IMG/VR virus record: IMGVR_UViG_648276671_000001
Coordinates: 1 to 11,541 of that record
DNA length: 11,541 bases
Origin: a virus
Taxonomy: Duplodnaviria > Heunggongvirae > Uroviricota > Caudoviricetes
Reading direction: 5' to 3' (one strand)
Shown: positions 1 through 11,541 of the stretch, piece after piece
Position numbering within the stretch: position 1 is the first letter of the stretch
How the letters are laid out: each line of letters opens with the position of its first letter
Made by a program: the position numbers and the translations under genes
Notes under the pieces: generated by a model
The model's input: only the letters and a program-made list of their open reading frames with translations
Database searches by the model: none
Told to the model about the DNA's origin: nothing

Positions 1-26
1 CTACAAAGGAAAGCTACCGGGAAGAA

Positions 27-299
27 TTACTGGTTCCCTGAAGACTCCGCCGAAATGGTAGTTTTGCCAGCATAATTTTCTTCCAGCAATGCCGCCAGCC
101 ACTTGAAAGAATTTTGTTGTTCCTGGGACCATTTGGGGTTGCGTGATTCAAAATGAATGGATGCCAGCGTTGGCAGCATTTGCTCCCTGGGAATTGATAA
201 GGCCAGATGTGAAAATGCGACCGTGAGGGCATTAACATCATCCCGAAGCCTGGAGATGCAGCCGAGCAACTCCTGTAGAGAAATGGTGCTATTGTCCAT
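27..299 (-). CDS. hypothetical small protein (90 aa), transcribed opposite to the lysis genes
   Basis: Complete ATG-to-TAA ORF on the minus strand. Reverse-complementing 300-317 gives AAGAGGA followed by a 6-nt spacer and the ATG, a strong Shine-Dalgarno arrangement. No family recognised by eye. Confidence 0.5.
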   Translation of the reverse strand: MDNSTISLQELLGCISRLRDDVNALTVAFSHLALSIPREQMLPTLASIHFESRNPKWSQEQQNSFKWLAALLEENYAGKTTISAESSGNQ

Positions 300-403
300 A
301 AATAATCCTCTTGATTGTATTTAACTATTACTTGCCTAATTCAACAGGCAGGGACAGATAAACATATCCAGAGTACAGAACCTGTAAATCCTGATAAATA
401 TCC

Positions 404-934
404 ATGAACGTAAAAGTCAGATACGGCCTGTCGGCAGCTGTACTGGTGCTGATTGGTGCAGGTGCGTCTGCTCCTCAGATACTTGATCAGTTTCTGGACG
501 AAAAAGAAGGTAACCACATAACGGCATATCGTGATGGTTCTGGGATATGGACCATCTGTCGTGGTGCCACGATGGTGGATGGTAAACCTGTTATTCCGGG
601 CATGAAACTGACGAAGGAAAAATGCGCTCAGGTTAATGCCATTGAACGCGATAAGGCGCTGGCATGGGTGGAGCGCAATATTAAAGTGCCGCTGACCGAA
701 CCTCAGAAAGCGGGTATCGCGTCATTTTGTCCCTATAACATTGGCCCCGATAAGTGTTTTCCGTCGACGTTTTATAAACGGCTGAATGCAGGTGATCGTA
801 AGGGTGCCTGCGAGGCGATTCGCTGGTGGATTAAGGACAGGGGACGCGATTGCCGCATTCGTTCAAATAACTGTTATGGTCAGGTTATTCGTCGTGACCA
901 GGAAAGCGCATTAGCCTGTTGGGGGATAGAGTAG
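404..934 (+). CDS. R: phage endolysin, T4-lysozyme-like (GH24) muramidase with N-terminal SAR (signal-anchor-release) domain
   Basis: 176-aa ORF. The N-terminus ([18 protein letters not shown]) is a Gly/Ala-rich weakly hydrophobic segment typical of SAR endolysins. The catalytic E-x8-D-x5-T spacing is present in [16 protein letters not shown]. Sits immediately upstream of Rz/Rz1. Confidence 0.9.
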
Positions 935-1371
935 TGAGCAGAGTTGTCGCGATTATTTATGCTCTGGTTATCTGCATCATCGTCTGCCTGTCATGGGCTG
1001 TTAATCATTACCGTGATAATGCCATCACTTACAAAAAGCAGCGTGATAAGGCCACATCCACAATCGCTGACATGCAGAAGCGTCAACGTGATGTAGCAGA
1101 ACTCGATGCCAGATATACAAAGGAGCTTGCTGATGCTAACGCGACTATTGAAAGTCTCCGTGCTGATGTTTCTGCTGGGCGTAAGCGCCTGCAAGTCGCC
1201 GCCACCTGTGCAAAGTCAACGACCGGAGCCAGCGGCATGGGCGATGGAGAAAGCCCAGGACTTACAGCAGATGCTGAACTCAATTATTACCGTCTCCGAA
1301 GTGGAATCGACAGGATAACCGCGCAGGTTAACTATCTGCAGGAGTACATCAGGACGCAGTGCTTAAAATAA
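934..1371 (+). CDS. Rz: i-spanin Rz (inner-membrane spanin subunit)
   Basis: GTG at 934 overlaps the R stop (taGTG). Product begins [34 protein letters not shown], an N-terminal TM segment followed by a coiled-coil-like periplasmic domain, closely matching lambda Rz as I recall it. The ORF track extends it to a TTG at 919, which I consider less likely. Confidence 0.85.
1133..1318 (+). CDS. Rz1: o-spanin Rz1 (outer-membrane lipoprotein), embedded in the +1 frame of Rz
   Basis: ATG at 1133 is preceded by AGGAG (1121-1125). Product [20 protein letters not shown] has a lipobox (VSAC) followed by a proline-rich mature peptide ([13 protein letters not shown]), and lies entirely inside Rz in another frame, which is the classic Rz/Rz1 arrangement. 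Confidence 0.8.
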
Positions 1372-1408
1372 TTTTAATTTCACTGAAATTTAACAAGTGA
1401 CTTTCAGG

Positions 1409-1437
1409 AAAATGCCTCGCAGATGCGGGGCATTTTT
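1409..1437 (+). terminator. rho-independent terminator-like hairpin downstream of Rz/Rz1
   Basis: Stem AAAATGCCTCGC (1409-1420), loop AGAT, stem GCGGGGCATTTT (1425-1436), then a T-run. The A-run on the 5' side and T-run on the 3' side make it potentially bidirectional. Confidence 0.5.
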
Positions 1438-1589
1438 GTACCGGTATTTCACCGCGCACCGCAGCGCACAATAAACACCGAACCTGACCCTTTGGAATGG
1501 GCCTTTGAGGATACCAGTTAGTGCTGGCGAGCCTCGGTGGGCTGGTTTCCTGTGCGGCAAAGGTTCATTTCAAAGAGTAGGCATACGAC

Positions 1590-2138
1590 ATGAGTGAATT
1601 AATTGAGACTTCTGATTTTGACTTTCGCCAGTTAGTTACCGCAGCAGAGGGTGAGCCGGTAACTGACACCTTCCAAATCGCAAAGGCTTTTGGTAAGCGT
1701 CACGCGGACGTATTGAGGGCGCTGAAAAATTGTCATTGCTCAGAAGATTTCCGGAGAGCGCATTTTTGCGTTGCCGAAAAAATCAATGGCTTAGGGATTT
1801 TCGACAAGAAGCAGACTTACTACCGCATGGACTTTAGCGGCTTCGTTATGCTGGTTATGGGATTTAATGGCGCAAAAGCCGACGCCGTTAAAGAGGCCTA
1901 TATAAATGCCTTTAACTGGATGTCAGCAGAACTCCGTAAGTACAGCGAAAGTTATGAAGCAGAACGCAACGCCATAATGCTGGAGTATATGAAAGAGAAG
2001 GATGTCGCCAGTATGTCTGGCCGCCTGCTCAATCGCTGGGGGAGAACGAAAAAACCTCAATTGCTTGCAAAGCTGAAACGCCTGGAGAGACAGGGACAGT
2101 TTTTATTACCGGGATTCGATAAGGGTATTCAAGCCTGA
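1590..2138 (+). CDS. Rha-family phage regulatory protein (candidate)
   Basis: 182-aa ORF. The N-terminal region (TDTFQIAKAFGKRHADVLRALKN) matches the conserved FGKRH-x-VLR motif of the Rha family (Pfam Phage_pRha) as I recall it. Occupies the locus where lambda carries bor. Confidence 0.65.
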   Translation: MSELIETSDFDFRQLVTAAEGEPVTDTFQIAKAFGKRHADVLRALKNCHCSEDFRRAHFCVAEKINGLGIFDKKQTYYRMDFSGFVMLVMGFNGAKADAVKEAYINAFNWMSAELRKYSESYEAERNAIMLEYMKEKDVASMSGRLLNRWGRTKKPQLLAKLKRLERQGQFLLPGFDKGIQA

Positions 2139-2325
2139 CACATCATGCGCTGTATCGTCGCTGTATTCCCGCATTAACCATGACCGTAGCCCGACAGGGA
2201 ATTCCTTCTGCGTGAGTGTGCGGGAATAATCAAAAACGATGCACACCGGGTTTTACTGTGCTGACAGACGCAGGGTTACCCTCATAGTCGCTTTTCCGGT
2301 GCGATGGTGGAAGAAACCGGGATGT

Positions 2326-2520
2326 TTATTCATCATCACTTTGGATTGATGTATATGCTCTCTTTTCTGACGTTAGTCTCCGACGGCAGGCTTCAATGAC
2401 CCAGGCTGAGAAATTCCCAGACCCTTTTTGCTCAAGAGCGATGTTAATTTGTTCAATCATTTGGTTAGGAAAGCGGATGTTGCGGGTTGTTGTTCTGCGG
2501 GTTCTGTTCTTAGTTGACAT
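2326..2520 (-). CDS. small basic protein (64 aa), YlcI/YnfO-like (DUF3950) candidate
   Basis: Minus-strand ORF MSTKNRTRRTTTRNIRFPNQMIEQINIALEQKGSGNFSAWVIEACRRRL, with a basic N-terminus and a short ribbon-helix-helix-like core. A homologous small ORF lies in the same place near the lambda right end and next to nohD-type terminase genes in E. coli prophages; both statements are from memory. Confidence 0.65.
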   Translation of the reverse strand: MSTKNRTRRTTTRNIRFPNQMIEQINIALEQKGSGNFSAWVIEACRRRLTSEKRAYTSIQSDDE

Positions 2521-2687
2521 GAGGTTGCCCCGTATTCAGTGTCGCTGATTTGTATTGTCTGAAGTTGTTTTTACGTTAAGTTGATGCAGATCAATTAATA
2601 CGATACCTGCGTCATAATTGATTATTTGACGTGGTTTGATGACGTAGATGCACGTTGTGACATGTAGATGATAATTATTATCATTTT

Positions 2688-2886
2688 GCGGGTCCTTTCC
2701 GGCGATCCGACAGGTTACGGGGCGGCGACCTCGCGGGTTTTCGCTATTTATGAAAATTTTCCGGGGAAAATCATGTCGGTACTTCTCGAACATAACTATT
2801 TGTTTTTTCTAATATCGAATCCGTAAAGGTCCGACATGAAAACGCCTAAAAAAGTCATTTTCGGGCACTTTCATGTCGGCCCCTGT
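2688..2886. promoter_or_regulatory. cos: cos site: lambda-type right end/cosQ region (2688-2719), cosN with the 12-nt cohesive end GGGCGGCGACCT (2720-2731), and a non-lambda cosB (about 2763-2886)
   Basis: 2688-2760 matches the lambda right-end/left-end junction as I recall it (GGGTCCTTTCCGG.GATCCGACAGGTTACG | GGGCGGCGACCTCGCGGGTTTTCGCTATTTATGAAAATTTTCCGG). Downstream of that the sequence diverges from lambda and carries three copies of TCATGTCGG. Confidence 0.85.
2771..2879. repeat. three 9-bp TCATGTCGG repeats in cosB, candidate terminase small-subunit binding sites (R3-, R2-, R1-like)
   Basis: TCATGTCGG at 2771-2779 (+), its reverse complement CCGACATGA at 2831-2839, and TCATGTCGG at 2871-2879 (+). 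These lie about +51, +111 and +151 from the cosN cohesive end, with the middle copy inverted and an AT-rich spacer (2780-2830) between the first two, the same architecture as lambda R3-I1-R2-R1. Confidence 0.6.
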
Positions 2887-2906
2887 ATTTATTGTGAGAC
2901 TGTTTC

Positions 2907-3426
2907 ATGAAGGTTAATAAAAAGAAACTTGCCGAAATTTTCAACGTGGATCCGCGAACGATTGAACGCTGGCAGTCTCAGGGACTCCCTTGCGTCTCCG
3001 GAGGTGGTAAGGGCGTTGAATCTGTATTTGATACCGCCATGGCAATTCAGTGGTATGCGCAGAGGGAAGCTGATATCGAAAATGAAAAACTCCGTAAAGA
3101 GGTTGAGGATTACAGGGCTGCCAGCGAGGCAGATCTCCAGCCTGGGACTATTGAGTACGAACGCCATCGACTTACGCGTGCGCAGGCTGACGCCCAGGAG
3201 CTGAAGAATGCCAGAGACTCCGCAGAAGTGGTGGAAACCGCATTCTGTACTTTCGTGCTGTCACGGATCGCAGGTGAAATTGCCAGTATTCTTGACGGGA
3301 TCCCTCTCTCGGTACAGCGGCGTTTTCCGGAACTGGAAAACCGACATGTTGATTTCCTGAAACGGGATATCATCAAAGCCATGAACAAAGCAGCCGCGCT
3401 GGATGAACTGATACCGGGGTTGCTGA

Positions 3427-3452
<26 letters not shown>
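2907..3452 (+). CDS. Nu1: terminase small subunit (Nu1-like); the N-terminal DNA-binding domain resembles the NohA/phage-21 type, the C-terminal part is lambda-like
   Basis: 181 aa. From about residue 75 ([57 protein letters not shown]...) it matches lambda gpNu1 as I recall it. The N-terminus ([29 protein letters not shown]) instead resembles the NohA/NohD-type prophage proteins. Confidence 0.9.
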
Positions 3453-7132
<3,680 letters not shown>

Positions 7133-7152
<20 letters not shown>

Positions 7153-8452
7153 TCTCCCGCATATTGCCAGCATGGCTTTTAATGAGCCGCTGATGCTTGA
7201 ACCCGCCTATGCGCGGGTTTTCTTTTGTGCGCTTGCAGGCCAGCTTGGGATCAGCCGCCTGACGGATGCAGTATCCGGCGACAGCCTGACTGCCGGAGAG
7301 GCACCCGCGGCGCTGGCGTTATCCGGTGATGATGACGGACCACGACAGGCCCGCAGTTATCAGGTCATGAACGGCATCGCCGTGCTGCCGGTGTCCGGTA
7401 CGCTGGTCAGCCGGACGCGGGCGCTGCAGCCGTATTCGGGAATGACCGGTTACAACGGCATTATCGCCCGTCTGCAACAGGCTGCCAGCGATCCGATGGT
7501 GGACGGCATTCTGCTGGATATGGACACACCGGGCGGGATGGTGGCGGGAGCATTTGACTGTGCTGACATCATCGCCCGTGTGCGAGACATAAAACCGGTA
7601 TGGGCGCTGGCCAACGACATGAACTGCAGTGCAGGTCAGCTGCTTGCCAGCGCCGCCTCCCGGCGTCTGGTCACGCAGACCGCCCGGACAGGCTCCATCG
7701 GCGTCATGATGGCTCACAGTAATTACGGTGCTGCGCTGGAGAAACAGGGCGTGGAAATCACGCTGATTTACAGCGGCAGCCATAAGGTGGATGGCAACCC
7801 CTACAGCCATCTACCGGATGATGTCCGGGAAACACTGCAGTCCCGGATGGATGCAACCCGCCGGATGTTTGCACAGAAGGTGTCGGCATATACCGGCCTG
7901 TCCGTGCAGGCTGTGCTGGATACCGAGGCTGCAGTGTACAGCGGTCAGGAGGCCATTGATGCCGGACTGGCTGATGAACTTGTGAACAGTACCGATGCGA
8001 TCACCGTCATGCGTGATGCACTGGATGCACGTAAATCCCGTCTCTCAGGAGGGCGAATGACCAAAGAGACTCAATCAACAACTGTTTCAGCCACTGCTTC
8101 GCAGGCTGACGTTACTGGCGTGGTGCAAGCGACGGAGGGCGAGAACGCCAGCGCTGCGCAGCCGGACGTGAACGCGCAGATCACCGCAGCGGTTGCGGCA
8201 GAAAACAGTCGCATTATGGGGATCCTCAACTGTGAGGAGGCTCACGGACGCGAAGAACAGGCATGCGTGCTGGCCGAAACCCCCGGTATGACCGTGGAAA
8301 CGGCCCGCCGTATTCTGGCCGCAGCACCACAGAGTGCACAGGCGCGCAGTGACACTGCGCTGGATCGTCTGATGCAGGGGGCACCGGCACCGCTGGCTGC
8401 AGGTAACCCGGCATCTGATGCCGTTAACGATTTGCTGAACACACCAGTGTAA
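7133..8452 (+). CDS. C: head maturation protease / minor capsid protein gpC (S49/ClpP-like)
   Basis: GTG at 7133 preceded by GAGGAGGAG. Product starts VTAELRNLPHIASMAFNEPLMLEPAYARVFF, 439 codons, matching lambda gpC. Overlaps the 3' end of B by 20 nt, as in lambda. The upstream extension to 6998 in the ORF track is not the real start. Confidence 0.9.
7847..8452 (+). CDS. Nu3: scaffolding protein Nu3, nested in-frame within the 3' part of C
   Basis: Internal in-frame ATG at 7847 (MDATRRMFAQKVSAYTGLSVQ...), 201 aa, sharing the stop of C. This is the lambda C/Nu3 nested arrangement. Confidence 0.7.
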   Translation: MDATRRMFAQKVSAYTGLSVQAVLDTEAAVYSGQEAIDAGLADELVNSTDAITVMRDALDARKSRLSGGRMTKETQSTTVSATASQADVTGVVQATEGENASAAQPDVNAQITAAVAAENSRIMGILNCEEAHGREEQACVLAETPGMTVETARRILAAAPQSAQARSDTALDRLMQGAPAPLAAGNPASDAVNDLLNTPV

Positions 8453-8461
8453 GGGATGTTT

Positions 8462-8794
8462 ATGACGAGCAAAGAAACCTTTACCCATTACCAGCCGCTG
8501 GGCAACAGTGACCCGGCTCATACCGCAACCGCGCCCGGCGGATTGAGTGCGAAAGCGCCTGCAATGACCCCGCTGATGCTGGACACCTCCACCCGTAAGC
8601 TGGTTGCGTGGGATGGCACCACCGACGGTGCTGCCGTTGGCATTCTTGCAGTTGCTGCTGACCAGACCAGCACCACACTGACGTTCTACAAGTCCGGCAC
8701 GTTCCGTTATGAGGATGTGCTCTGGCCGGAGGCTGCCAGCGACGAGACGAAAAAACGGACCGCGTTTGCCGGAACGGCAATCAGCATCGTTTAA
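8462..8794 (+). CDS. D: head decoration protein gpD
   Basis: 110 aa from the ATG at 8462 ([27 protein letters not shown]...), matching lambda gpD. The ORF track begins two codons earlier at 8456. Confidence 0.9.
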
Positions 8795-8811
8795 CTTTAC
8801 CCTTCATCACT

Positions 8812-8836
8812 AAAGGCCGCCTGTGCGGCTTTTTTT
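8812..8836 (+). terminator. GC-rich hairpin followed by a T7 run in the D-E intergenic region (terminator/attenuator-like)
   Basis: GCCGC (8816-8820), loop CTGT, GCGGC (8825-8829), then TTTTTTT (8830-8836). The same element is present between D and E in lambda, from memory. Confidence 0.5.
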
Positions 8837-8849
8837 ACGGGATTTTTTT

Positions 8850-9875
8850 ATGTCGATGTACACAACCGCCCAGCTGCTGGCGGCAAATGAGCAGAAATTT
8901 AAGTTTGATCCGCTGTTTCTGCGTCTCTTTTTCCGTGAGAGCTATCCCTTCACTACGGAGAAAGTCTATCTCTCACAAATTCCGGGACTGGTAAACATGG
9001 CGCTGTACGTTTCGCCGATTGTTTCCGGTGAGGTTATCCGTTCCCGTGGCGGCTCCACCTCTGAATTTACGCCGGGATATGTCAAACCCAAGCATGAGGT
9101 GAATCCGCAGATGACCCTGCGTCGCCTGCCGGATGAAGATCCGCAGAATCTGGCGGACCCGGCTTACCGCCGCCGTCGCATCATCATGCAGAACATGCGT
9201 GACGAAGAGCTGGCCATTGCTCAGGTCGAAGAGATGCAGGCAGTTTCTGCCGTGCTCAAGGGCAAATACACCATGACCGGTGAAGCCTTCGAACCGGTTG
9301 AGGTGGATATGGGCCGCAGTGCGGCGAACAACATCACGCAGTCCGGCGGCACGGAGTGGAGCAAGCGTGACAAGTCCACGTATGACCCGACCGACGATAT
9401 CGAAGCCTACGCGCTGAACGCCAGCGGCGTGGTGAATATCATCGTGTTTGACCCGAAAGGCTGGGCGCTGTTCCGTTCCTTCAAAGCCGTCAGGGAGAAG
9501 CTGGATACCCGTCGCGGCTCTCATTCCGAACTGGAGACAGCGGTAAAAGACCTGGGCAAAGCGGTGTCTTATAAGGGAATGTATGGCGATGTGGCCATCG
9601 TCGTGTATTCCGGACAGTACGTGGAAAACGGCGTCAAAAAGAACTTCCTGCCGGACAACACGATGGTGCTGGGTAACACTCATGCACGCGGTCTGCGCAC
9701 CTATGGCTGTATTCAGGATGCGGATGCATTGAGTGAGGGTATTAATGCGTCTCCCCGTTATCCGAAAAACTGGAAGACATCCGGCGATCCGGCGCGAGAG
9801 TTCACCATGATTCAGTCAGCACCGCTGATGCTGCTGGCTGATCCTGATGAGTTCGTGTCCGTTCAACTGGCGTAA
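8850..9875 (+). CDS. E: major capsid protein gpE
   Basis: 341 aa from the ATG at 8850 (MSMYTTAQLLAANEQKFKFDPLFLRLFFRESYPFTTEKVYLSQIPGLVNMALYVSPIVSGEVIRSRGG...), matching lambda gpE. The ORF track starts upstream at 8823. Confidence 0.95.
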   Translation: MSMYTTAQLLAANEQKFKFDPLFLRLFFRESYPFTTEKVYLSQIPGLVNMALYVSPIVSGEVIRSRGGSTSEFTPGYVKPKHEVNPQMTLRRLPDEDPQNLADPAYRRRRIIMQNMRDEELAIAQVEEMQAVSAVLKGKYTMTGEAFEPVEVDMGRSAANNITQSGGTEWSKRDKSTYDPTDDIEAYALNASGVVNIIVFDPKGWALFRSFKAVREKLDTRRGSHSELETAVKDLGKAVSYKGMYGDVAIVVYSGQYVENGVKKNFLPDNTMVLGNTHARGLRTYGCIQDADALSEGINASPRYPKNWKTSGDPAREFTMIQSAPLMLLADPDEFVSVQLA

Positions 9876-9877
9876 TC

Positions 9878-9900
9878 ATGGCCCTTAGGGGCCATTTTCT
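9878..9900 (+). other. perfect 7-bp stem hairpin followed by a U-rich tract just after the E stop
   Basis: ATGGCCC-TTAG-GGGCCAT (9878-9895) followed by TTTCT. Candidate 3' stabiliser or attenuator at the boundary between the highly expressed capsid gene and downstream genes. Confidence 0.45.
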
Positions 9901-9916
9901 CTCTGTGGAGGAGTCC

Positions 9917-10312
9917 ATGACGAAAGATGAACTGATTGCCCGTCTCCGGTCGCTGGGTGAGCAACTGAACCGTGATGTCAGCCTGACGGGGACGAAAGAA
10001 GAACTGGCGCTCCGTGTGGCAGAGCTGGAAGAGGAGCTTGATGACACGGATGACGGAGCCGGTCAGGACTCGTCTGTCAGCCCGGAAAATGCGCTGACCG
10101 GACATGAAAATGAGGTGGTATCAGCACAGACGGATACCGTGACTGATACGGCTGCTCTGGTCACGGTTGTGGCACTGGTGACGCTGCATACCGATGCACT
10201 TCACGCCACGCGGGATGAACCTGTGGCATTTGTGCTGCCGGGAACGGCGTTTCGTGTCTCTGCCGGTGTGGCAGCCGAAATGACAGAGCGCGGCCTGGCC
10301 AGAATGCAATAA
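9917..10312 (+). CDS. FI: DNA packaging protein gpFI
   Basis: ATG at 9917 preceded by GGAGGAG. Product MTKDELIARLRSLGEQLNRDVSLTGTKEELALRVAELEEELDD...RGLARMQ matches lambda gpFI. Confidence 0.9.
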   Translation: MTKDELIARLRSLGEQLNRDVSLTGTKEELALRVAELEEELDDTDDGAGQDSSVSPENALTGHENEVVSAQTDTVTDTAALVTVVALVTLHTDALHATRDEPVAFVLPGTAFRVSAGVAAEMTERGLARMQ

Positions 10313-10323
10313 CGGGAGGCGCT

Positions 10324-10677
10324 GTGGCTGATTTCGATAACCTGTTCGATGCTGCCATTGTCCGCGCCGATGAAACGATACGCGGGTACATGGGAACGTC
10401 AGCCACCATGACATCCGGTGAGCAGTCCGGCGCAGTAATACGTGGTGTTTTTGATGACCCTGAAAATATCAGCTATGCCGGACAGGGCGTGCGCGTTGAA
10501 GGCTCCAGCCCGTCCCTGTTTGTCCGGACTGATGATGTGCGGCAGCTGCGGCGTGGAGACACGCTGACCATCGGTGAGGAAAACTTCTGGATAGACCGGG
10601 TTTCGCCGGATGATGGTGGAAGCTGTCATCTCTGGCTTGGGCGGGGCGTACCGCCTGCCGTTAACCGTCGCCGCTGA
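10324..10677 (+). CDS. FII: head-tail connector / head completion protein gpFII
   Basis: GTG start at 10324. 117 aa (MADFDNLFDAAIVRADETIRGYMGTSATMTSGEQSGAVIRGVFDDPENISYAGQGVRVEG...) matching lambda gpFII. Confidence 0.9.
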   Translation: MADFDNLFDAAIVRADETIRGYMGTSATMTSGEQSGAVIRGVFDDPENISYAGQGVRVEGSSPSLFVRTDDVRQLRRGDTLTIGEENFWIDRVSPDDGGSCHLWLGRGVPPAVNRRR

Positions 10678-10688
10678 AAGGGGGATGT

Positions 10689-11267
10689 ATGGCCATAAAA
10701 GGTCTTGAGCAGGCCATTGAAAACCTCAGCCGTATCAGCAAAACGGCGGTGCCTGGTGCCGCCGCAATGGCCATTAACCGCGTTGCTTCATCCGCGATAT
10801 CGCAGTCGGCGTCACAGGTTGCCCGTGAGACAAAGGTACGCCGGAAACTGGTAAAGGAAAGGGCCAGGCTGAAAAGGGCCACGGTCAAAAATCCGCAGGC
10901 CAGAATCAAAGTTAACCGGGGGGATTTGCCCGTAATCAAGCTGGGTAATGCGCGGGTTGTCCTTTCGCGCCGCAGGCGTCGTAAAAAGGGGCAGCGTTCA
11001 TCCCTGAAAGGTGGCGGCAGCGTGCTTGTGGTGGGTAACCGTCGTATTCCCGGCGCGTTTATTCAGCAACTGAAAAATGGCCGGTGGCATGTCATGCAGC
11101 GTGTGGCCGGGAAAAACCGTTACCCCATTGATGTGGTGAAAATCCCGATGGCGGTGCCGCTGACCACGGCGTTTAAACAAAATATTGAGCGGATACGGCG
11201 TGAACGTCTTCCGAAAGAGCTGGGCTATGCGCTGCAGCATCAACTGAGGATGGTAATAAAGCGATGA
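10689..11267 (+). CDS. Z: tail completion protein gpZ
   Basis: 192-aa ORF (MAIKGLEQAIENLSRISKTAVPGAAAMAINRVASSAISQSASQVARETKVRRKL...) matching lambda gpZ. Confidence 0.9.
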   Translation: MAIKGLEQAIENLSRISKTAVPGAAAMAINRVASSAISQSASQVARETKVRRKLVKERARLKRATVKNPQARIKVNRGDLPVIKLGNARVVLSRRRRRKKGQRSSLKGGGSVLVVGNRRIPGAFIQQLKNGRWHVMQRVAGKNRYPIDVVKIPMAVPLTTAFKQNIERIRRERLPKELGYALQHQLRMVIKR

Positions 11268-11541
11268 AACATACTGAACTCCGTGCAGCCGTACTGGATG
11301 CACTGGAGAAGCATGACACCGGGGCGACGTTTTTTGATGGTCGCCCCGCTGTTTTTGATGAGGCGGATTTTCCGGCAGTTGCCGTTTATCTCACCGGCGT
11401 TGAATACACGGGCGAAGAGCTGGACAGCGATACCTGGCAGGCGGAGCTGCATATCGAAGTTTTCCTGCCTGCTCAGGTGCCGGATTCAGAGCTGGATGCG
11501 TGGATGGAGTCCCGGATTTATCCGGTGATGAGCGATATCCC
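11264..11541 (+). CDS. U: tail terminator protein gpU, 5' part only (runs off the window end)
   Basis: ATG at 11264 overlaps the Z stop (ATGA). Translation MKHTELRAAVLDALEKHDTGATFFDGRPAVFDEADFPAVAVYLTGVEYTGEELDSDTWQAELHIEVFLPAQVPDSELDAWMESRIYPVMSDI matches lambda gpU. No stop within the window. Confidence 0.85.
   Translation, partial: MKHTELRAAVLDALEKHDTGATFFDGRPAVFDEADFPAVAVYLTGVEYTGEELDSDTWQAELHIEVFLPAQVPDSELDAWMESRIYPVMSDI

Follow-up and report, generated by a model that had tools for sequence, protein, structure and literature searches.

A small antisense gene between ydfR and the endolysin gene of a lambdoid late region is probably a reverse moron

The window described here is the whole stretch of 11,541 nucleotides (nt), positions 1 to 11,541 of the IMG/VR virus record IMGVR_UViG_648276671_000001, and represents a lambdoid late region of a tailed phage (Caudoviricetes). 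Directly upstream of R, the gene of the signal-anchor-release (SAR) endolysin, it carries a minus-strand open reading frame (ORF) of 90 amino acids (aa) at 27-299, for which we use the working name ORF90. We consider it probable that ORF90 is a reverse moron, that is, an accessory gene with its own upstream cassette, placed antisense in the late operon between ydfR and R and expressed in the lysogen. ORF90 is neither a displaced holin nor a demonstrated lysis timer. Reading the antisense ORF as a bona fide accessory gene, and not as noise or as a lysis component, settles the annotation of the window.

ORF90 and its position in the lysis cassette

The elements on which the argument is built are the following (window positions).

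27-299, minus strand: ORF90 coding sequence, ATG start at 299, 90 aa, PHROG 2411; putative cargo of the reverse moron
2-61, plus strand: 3' end of ydfR (DUF1327 family), last 19 codons and the stop codon TAG (59-61); the gene starts upstream, outside the window
300-403: spacer between ORF90 and R, 104 nt, GC content 0.34
306-310, minus strand: Shine-Dalgarno sequence GAGGA, 6 nt before the ORF90 ATG, read from the sequence
404-934, plus strand: R, SAR endolysin gene (PF00959 Phage_lysozyme, E 2.5e-23; phrog_7 endolysin), bounding the insertion slot

A preliminary description of this DNA had pointed to a well-formed minus-strand ORF with a good ribosome-binding site and to an AT-rich spacer before R, and both observations hold, the GC content of the spacer being 0.34 as compared to about 0.50 in R and Rz. 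It had also reported no plus-strand gene in the ~375 bp upstream of R. This has to be corrected, as bases 2-61 are the 3' end of ydfR. They translate as ...YKGKLPGRITGSLKTPPKW*, which is 100% identical to residues 96-114 of the 114-aa YdfR homologue of phage Chlobot, and RefSeq labels the equivalent gene 'YdfR family protein'. ORF90 and ydfR overlap tail to tail by 35 nt, and the last ~8 codons of ORF90 (27-52) are the antisense of sequence common to ydfR genes without insert. The R protein shows a Gly/Ala-rich N-terminal segment and the triad E-x8-D-x5-T in its translation.

Concerning the coding capacity of ORF90, an ATG-initiated ORF of at least 90 aa arose in 57 of 5000 shuffles of bases 1-403 (about 1%). 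The protein matches PHROG 2411 over its full length (E 7.1e-54, residues 1-90 against profile positions 1-90 of 90). Of 27 distinct homologous DNA sequences, 26 have an undisturbed frame, with start codon and Shine-Dalgarno sequence retained over about 10% DNA divergence, and GAGGA is unchanged in all 17 distinct spacer variants (82 loci). Variable sites amount to 12/15/32 in first, second and third codon positions (27 distinct sequences; chi-square p 0.003). Selection statistics such as the ratio of nonsynonymous to synonymous substitution rates (dN/dS) cannot by themselves pick the coding frame, because the plus-strand frame which shares the wobble positions of ORF90 scores alike: its ratio of nonsynonymous to synonymous polymorphism (pN/pS) is 0.31, that of ORF90 0.34, and it is open in 14 of the 27 sequences. 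In the window this plus frame contains two stops, has neither start codon nor ribosome-binding site and is out of frame with ydfR. The coding frame is settled by these stops, by the ribosome-binding site of ORF90 and by its distant homologues, protein relatives of 24-40% identity, as hitch-hiking at the DNA level cannot yield such conservation. Judged by these comparisons, ORF90 is a genuine, conserved protein-coding gene.

Its neighbourhood was compared in 83 ORF90-bearing loci, comprising RefSeq E. coli, phage Chlobot and 80 IMG/VR contigs. Gene order is identical in all 83: a 71-aa S21-type class II holin, a 114-aa ydfR, antisense ORF90, a spacer of 104-105 nt, R and Rz, with the 35-nt overlap of ORF90 and ydfR constant throughout. 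The holin gene lies ~800 bp from the ORF90 start in nearly all related loci, in agreement with the pinholin partner that had been postulated upstream of the window. In the Qin prophage of K-12 the uninterrupted cassette reads essQ-ydfR-rrrQ; ydfR and rrrQ overlap by 4 nt and nothing lies between them. Because ydfR intervenes, the pinholin never abuts R in this cassette type. The premise that a holin normally abuts R therefore does not apply here, and none has gone missing, ydfR being the usual occupant of the position between pinholin and R. The lysis cassette, which is of the Qin/phage-21 type, is complete, with nothing missing beside R. A holin frame ending within 1-75, together with absent transcription or translation signals for ORF90, had been named as a sign that ORF90 is fortuitous; a plus-strand frame does end there, it is that of ydfR, and ORF90 is real anyway. 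In phage 640R1, which has no ORF90, ydfR is followed by a gap of 63 nt and R, and compared with the window the indel extends over about 53-340. From the overlap of ydfR and rrrQ in Qin and from ORF90-less 640R1 the alignments show that ORF90 is inserted, extra DNA relative to related cassettes. In the Juhala/Hendrix sense (PMC3594210) a moron is extra DNA between genes that are adjacent in related phages, and ORF90 is such DNA.

The ORF90 segment is found in 642 of 5426 complete E. coli genomes (about 12%), including REL606 and BLR(DE3), and is annotated "hypothetical protein" throughout, so that a known function would annotate hundreds of genomes. The laboratory B strains REL606 and BL21 carry it, as locus ECB_RS07100. 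It is also present in the isolated, plaque-forming phage Chlobot; functional phages are thus known with ORF90 (Chlobot) and without it (640R1). In E. coli 14EC007 (L001 3611-4823) an IS3-family insertion upstream of ORF90 has split ydfR into two pseudogene fragments; ORF90, R and Rz are intact despite this insertion.

Leader of ORF90 and the reverse-moron cassette

Conserved strings in the leaders of phage-borne distant members of the ORF90 family revealed a cassette, which was then followed by pattern scans (at least 120 matches in viral contigs and at least 120 in metagenome contigs; these counts are lower bounds). Its 5' part consists of a CTGAT-N5-ATCAG / AATATCAGG(G/A)T box and, about 20 nt further on, a (C)CTGG-TAnnnT block in which the -10-like T, A and T never vary. 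After 6-7 nt follow TCAGCCC, a covarying hairpin and about 10 nt, and the 3' part is formed by GAGG-GATGGCTGATTA-CCTC and a Shine-Dalgarno sequence, with the ATG 19-22 nt later. In the covarying hairpin 5 of 7 pairs stay paired through double changes, and the 3' part of the GAGG/CCTC hairpin resembles the anti-Shine-Dalgarno end of 16S rRNA. The cassette precedes at least 128 distinct small proteins (median 73 aa) in at least 26 unrelated clusters, and in 84% of the cassette cases listed a convergent gene ends at or overlaps the 3' end of the cargo. Examples are located at L538 1499-1643 (HK97), L539 1499-1644 (ES18), L089 4865-5009 and L086 4859-5007, with over 150 others among L310-L572. As a family marker, the 14-mer loop motif by itself was discarded, its matches in viral contigs being mostly chance, with the family gene at 3 of 120 loci.

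Among the genes preceded by this cassette is gp23 of phage HK97, annotated "reverse moron product" and converging on gp22, "moron product"; a second is gp25 of phage ES18, annotated "possible moron" and converging on gene 24, the DUF1327 product of which is a homologue of YdfR. A covariance model, R1, was built from 48 cassettes and gives 132 bits for the leader of ES18 gp25 and 91 bits for that of HK97 gp23. In the window, the leader of ORF90 contains these elements.

331-352, minus strand: leader hairpin, arms CTTGCCT / AGGCAGG, 8-nt loop, read from the sequence and alignments
361-366, minus strand: -10-like hexamer TATGTT, aligned with the invariant TAnnnT of the canonical cassette (T51, A52 and T56 conserved)
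383-388, minus strand: -35-like hexamer TTTACA, 16 nt upstream of the -10-like hexamer, in the window only
388-401, minus strand: upstream box ATATTTATCAGGAT, counterpart of the cassette AATATCAGG(G/A)T box, abutting the R start codon on the other strand
275-415, minus strand: best R1 match in the window, 16 bits, E 0.53, a putative degenerate copy on the ORF90 leader

On the ORF90 leaders of Chlobot, E. ruysiae and REL606, R1 scores 26.2 bits (E 0.006), as best match and on the correct strand; its top match at each ORF90 locus tested, as in the window, is the ORF90 leader in the correct orientation. The upstream box ATATTTATCAGGAT (401-388), which every ORF90 locus conserves, and CTGGATATGTT (371-361) are the aligned counterparts of the canonical ATATCAGG box and the CTGG(A/T)TATGTT -10 block. 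These two parts are kept, and the loop motif and the canonical hairpin sequence are lost: the stretch aligned to the loop motif reads AATAGTTAAATAC, and TCTGTCCC stands in place of TCAGCCC. The hairpin at 331-352 occupies the position of the canonical covarying hairpin with another sequence, is located close to the right-hand end of the insertion as compared to 640R1, and recurs in most ORF90 relatives as CCCGGCCTG-TTGAAT-CAGGCGGGG. Alignment and model scores together indicate that the ORF90 leader is probably a diverged copy of the reverse-moron cassette. Of the roles suggested for ORF90 in the preliminary description, that of a moron is consequently the one we favour, as the gene is inserted relative to Qin and 640R1 and lies behind a probable diverged cassette of the HK97 gp23 type.

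The resemblance to HK97 gp23 (NC_002167, 86 aa, between tail genes I and J) extends to the antisense position in the late operon and to the overlap with the 3' end of a forward accessory gene. The two differ in that HK97 has a canonical leader (91 bits as compared to 16-26 bits) and annotated putative terminators, whereas ORF90 has a degenerate leader and none were found; gp23 stands in the tail operon and ORF90 in the lysis cassette, and the proteins are unrelated (hhalign probability 0.1%). Genes 24 and 25 of ES18 follow the same two-gene plan as ydfR and ORF90, a forward DUF1327/YdfR-family gene meeting a cassette-driven reverse gene. They are found in the tail operon, between M and L, gp24 consists of the DUF1327 core only, without C-terminal extension, and gene 24 is annotated 'possible moron' like gene 25.

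The slot between ydfR and R takes other cargo as well. Two loci, L450 and L485, have the window-like R-proximal sequence followed by a full canonical leader and a different cargo. In phage 2H10 (slot at L004 2217-2982) an extended ydfR of 183-190 aa is accompanied by an 88-aa reverse ORF (L004 2716-2982, minus strand), which overlaps the ydfR end and whose leader scores 19.9 bits with R1; considered as a homologue of ORF90 it was rejected for lack of any similarity. The ydfR-R gap of 640R1 (L002 2568-2630) retains, without cargo, the half of the cassette nearest to R (ATATTTATCAGGATTTATCGGTTTCTG...) and resembles the scar that deletion of a reverse moron would leave. No counterpart of this gap sequence exists in K-12 Qin, because ydfR there overlaps rrrQ.

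RNAalifold predicts a long-range pairing TCAGCC:GGCTGA in the cassette leader, which together with GAGG/CCTC would form a pseudoknot. Covariation in support of this pairing was not obtained, since the two strands hardly vary even when unconstrained (94 of 110), and such variants as occur alter one side only. A search of Rfam 15 with the leaders, the window and the HK97 and ES18 loci returned no family for the cassette leader and nothing else relevant, and the cassette strings are absent from the searchable literature. Tentatively, and as a possibility to which we give less than even weight, the ORF90 leader could be the decayed copy of an undescribed cis-regulatory unit widespread in temperate phages of enterobacteria: a portable promoter with a structured leader of ~85 nt, controlling translation or stability of at least 26 unrelated reverse-moron cargoes. 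The leader would comprise TCAGCCC, the covarying hairpin and a GAGG/CCUC hairpin whose loop GAUGGCUGAUUA can pair with UCAGCC into a pseudoknot, and the ORF90 family, whose Serratia members adjoin dinI in the core genome, would count as one cargo of host origin with a cellular target. Reverse morons are a known kind of gene, which ORF90 would join with an uncharacterised protein; the shared cassette is the more novel lead. It offers a handle for the systematic discovery of lysogen-expressed accessory genes of phages and is a candidate regulatory RNA.

A separate observation concerns the forward genes that abut ORF90-family genes. Three otherwise unrelated ones (window 2-61, L089 5261-5476, L103 4239-4430) share a tail of ~20 aa, ...ITYKGKLPGRITGSLKTPPKW, ...FSIKGNIFSDQIFGDLKKPPSY and ...FSTKINGETRNEKITGSLRAPIKL, ending ...ITGSLKTPPKW, ...IFGDLKKPPSY and ...ITGSLRAPIKL. 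This tail was not found in K-12 YdfR or ES18 gp24. The shared tails suggest that the mobile unit includes about 60 nt past the cargo stop, by which the forward gene of the recipient is re-capped. A conserved two-gene module was considered and rejected, as the forward partners are not homologous and the tail occurs in only 1 of 108 partners of other cargoes.

The ORF90 family and the proposed role

ORF90 encodes a soluble, acidic 10-kDa protein (isoelectric point 5.2, grand average of hydropathy -0.33). It has no transmembrane segment (maximal 19-residue Kyte-Doolittle hydropathy 0.83) and matched no holin family in Pfam and PHROG profile searches, for which reasons a holin or antiholin is rejected. 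Membership in YdfR/DUF1327 is rejected too, as there is no Pfam match and it is the overlapping gene on the plus strand that RefSeq labels 'YdfR family'. An AlphaFold2 model computed on the family alignment consists of three helices (8-34, 38-52 and 59-77) with a mean predicted local distance difference test (pLDDT) score of 82; pLDDT exceeds 90 over residues 11-70, and the tail, 80-90, is disordered. Leucines L11, L18, L25 and L32 are conserved at heptad spacing. Together with the lack of a catalytic signature, these leucines suggest a small modulator that binds proteins or oligomerises.

Close relatives of ORF90 (at least 70% identity) are restricted to Escherichia and Shigella. Full-length relatives at 24-40% identity were retrieved by an exhaustive and a second profile search from Citrobacter, Atlantibacter, Serratia, Sodalis, Chania, Gibbsiella, Acerihabitans and metagenomes. 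Gap-free alignment of these proteins extends over about 80 residues, with the common motif ELL..I..LR..VN.L..AFSYL.FS...AL.FES.N, and their genes occur in diverse contexts.

P0067 (Atlantibacter), P0070: antisense between lambda-like tail genes M and L
P0064: divergent from the late operon, adjoining the small terminase gene
P0083 (Citrobacter): antisense, directly upstream of holin-lysozyme-Rz
P0081 (E. coli): beside an AIDA-type autotransporter
P0075, P0087: chromosomal, same strand, between dinI and bssS in Serratia; gene in many Serratia species
P0071: chromosomal, Sodalis ligni

In Serratia and relatives the family gene is a conserved chromosomal gene of 92-93 aa in the order dinI-X-bssS (L111 4001-4282, Serratia marcescens; L095 5001-5279), a possible entry point to the cellular function of the family. 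A LexA box was looked for upstream of family members, including the short Serratia upstream region, and not found; the box-like motif is spaced CTG-N9-CAG and not N10. When viral contigs were scanned by profile for remote members carried by phages, the E. coli ORF90 type was the only one returned. In the search of PADLOC anti-phage defence profiles no family member fell below E 0.001, and one reached E 0.005 against PDC-M71B. A search of the literature by accession, PHROG identifier, gene name and sequence string gave nothing on ORF90 or its leader, and a survey of Stx-phage lysis cassettes is without such a gene. The ORF90 family is an uncharacterised and unnamed family of Enterobacterales without Pfam entry. 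In a Citrobacter freundii prophage (L103 5929-6026) the Hfq-binding small RNA isrI (RF01392, 51.7 bits, gathering score 45) is located ~1.7 kb from the ORF90 homologue.

The mode of action we propose starts from a cassette laid out as pinholin S, ydfR, the inserted ORF90, R and Rz/Rz1, as in phage 21 and Qin. Leftward transcription would begin at a sigma-70-type promoter in the R-proximal part of the spacer (-10 TATGTT, 366-361) and would take place while the late operon is silent, i.e. in the lysogen. The three-helix protein, presumably cytoplasmic, may then act on a target of the host or of an incoming phage, as a factor for lysogenic conversion or fitness and not within the lysis machinery. 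In the lytic phase, ORF90 would be opposed by Q-antiterminated rightward transcription, which would shut off its expression.

Morons as a class, the definition of which includes bacterial homologues outside prophages, accommodate ORF90 (PMC3594210). The HK97 moron gp15 has homologues that are mostly chromosomal genes of Enterobacteriaceae outside prophages (YebO) (Cumby et al. 2012, reviewed in PMC3594210), the same pattern as that of ORF90 and the chromosomal genes in Serratia and Sodalis. Unlike the soluble ORF90, gp15 is an inner-membrane superinfection-exclusion protein with demonstrated function and prophage expression. The K-12 Qin cassette essQ-ydfR-rrrQ-rzpQ/rzoQ is of the same type as that of the window (S21-like holin, DUF1327 gene, R21-like lysozyme, spanins) and differs from it by the lack of an antisense gene between the overlapping ydfR and rrrQ; in addition, what Qin YdfR and YdfR of the window type have in common is limited to residues ~1-70. 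The bor gene of phage lambda is likewise an accessory gene near the lysis genes that is read against the late operon and expressed in the lysogen, as we propose for ORF90. Bor is an outer-membrane lipoprotein without sequence relation to ORF90, and its gene lies downstream of Rz.

Alternative readings and other features of the window

Several results weigh against ORF90 as a lysogen-expressed reverse moron. As regards expression, the promoter-like site 388-361 (TTTACA-16-TATGTT) has 9 of 12 consensus matches, and a scan for such sites counted no more of them than in shuffled sequence. The -35 hexamer TTTACA of the window reads TTTATC in relatives; a one-base deletion and substitutions improve the match in the window, and this form is absent from the other members of the set of 17 spacer variants. 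No consensus promoter was found in the REL606 copy of the leader. The canonical loop motif GATGGCTGATTA, flanked by GAGG/CCTC, has no match within 2 mismatches in the ORF90 leader, and its loss, together with that of the hairpin sequence and the score of 16-26 bits, could mean that expression is decaying. Two classical moron features are wanting: no intrinsic terminator was found after ORF90 in the window and REL606, and the GC content of ORF90 (0.48 as compared to 0.50 for R and Rz) is not distinct. Constraint on ORF90 is relaxed, as pN/pS is 0.12 for R and 0.20 for Rz, and about a third of the 90%-identity clusters of ORF90 are truncated or frameshifted, with few sequences each. Concerning function, structure prediction, advised in the preliminary description, produced a confident three-helix model and no fold match; searches of Pfam, NCBIfam, PADLOC and PDB sequences with ORF90 and the family alignment gave no usable match, and it is by analogy that a role in the service of the lysogen is attributed to ORF90.

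ORF90 and YdfR might instead form one functional convergent pair of a forward and a reverse moron, in which ORF90 or its antisense transcript controls YdfR. K-12 YdfR is reported to bind RNase E's catalytic domain and possibly RNA (PMC13232886), and a terminator-less ORF90 transcript would run antisense into ydfR. The constant 35-nt 3' overlap in 83 of 83 loci and the similar tail on three unrelated forward partners of ORF90-family genes agree with such a pair. So does ES18, in which gene 24, the YdfR homologue (blastp E 2e-4), converges on the reverse moron gp25 between tail genes M and L, and gp25 itself may be remotely related to ORF90 (hhalign probability 26%, E 7e-4, a suggestive score). 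Yet each partner occurs without the other: ydfR lacks ORF90 in K-12 Qin and 640R1, and the ORF90 family has no DUF1327 neighbour in Serratia, in Sodalis, at the E. coli autotransporter locus and in L086. With forward partners that are non-homologous apart from the short tail, and a tail motif nearly confined to partners of this family, we regard the pair as unlikely.

ORF90 could also be a decaying passenger, a young, former reverse moron that is now poorly or not expressed and hitch-hikes with the lysis cassette. Its leader is degenerate (16-26 bits as compared to 91-132 for canonical ones) and devoid of the loop motif, its pN/pS is about 3 times that of R, truncated and frameshifted variants are many, and close relatives are confined to two genera. 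The prophage of the window may itself be defective, as the frame of terminase A is broken at about 5148-5151. Against decay stand frame, start codon and Shine-Dalgarno sequence kept in 26 of 27 distinct sequences, the significant excess of third-position substitutions and the presence of ORF90 in the plaque-forming Chlobot. Moreover, the intact form dominates by number of members, with clusters of 70, 81, 183 and 370 as compared to 1-8 for truncated ones. Such decay thus appears rather improbable to us.

The preliminary description had also suggested that ORF90 modulates lysis timing, either by its protein acting on pinholin or SAR endolysin, or by antisense transcription that damps leaky or late expression of R. 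Position speaks for it. ORF90 lies directly upstream of R, the putative promoter and the upstream box abut the R start codon, transcripts starting in the spacer would run counter to late transcription, reverse genes recur in the slot upstream of R, and the Citrobacter homologue is also found beside a lysis cassette, antisense and directly upstream of the holin gene. Nevertheless, the same slot takes unrelated cargo (2H10, L450, L485) and the same cassette serves at least 26 unrelated cargo families, which marks the position as an insertion hot-spot and not as an indication of function. Homologues in tail operons and at chromosomal loci without lysis genes make a lysis-specific role unlikely. 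ORF90 has no transmembrane or signal segment by which to meet the pinholin or the membrane-tethered SAR endolysin, and cassettes without ORF90 are common, phages existing with and without it. A role in timing is accordingly unsupported, and we judge it quite improbable. That ORF90 is a fortuitous frame antisense to non-coding or plus-coding DNA is a negligible possibility, effectively refuted by the distant homologues: the wobble-sharing plus frame with its similar pN/pS and the roughly 1% of shuffles with an ORF of this length are outweighed by the stops, missing start and shifted register of that plus frame, by conservation of the minus-frame protein across genera and genomic contexts and by the confident structure prediction.

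Apart from the ydfR-R region, the reverse-moron reading of which we retain, the window contains further accessory genes between Rz and the terminase genes, followed by packaging and head genes.

934-1371: Rz
1590-2138, forward: gene of a Rha/ORF11CD3-family regulator, accessory
2326-2520, antisense: gene of the YlcI/YnfO family, 64 aa, accessory
remaining genes, in order: Nu1, terminase A, W, portal, protease/scaffold, D, major capsid

The reverse-moron cassette was not found upstream of the antisense YlcI/YnfO-family gene (2326-2520). In the gene of the terminase large subunit, the frame changes within an A-run at ~5143-5151 (GGCAGGAAAAAATAC), so that frame 1 encodes residues 1-576 and frame 3 the ~65 residues at the C terminus. 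Either the sequence contains an error here or the gene is frameshifted, and in the latter case the prophage would be defective.

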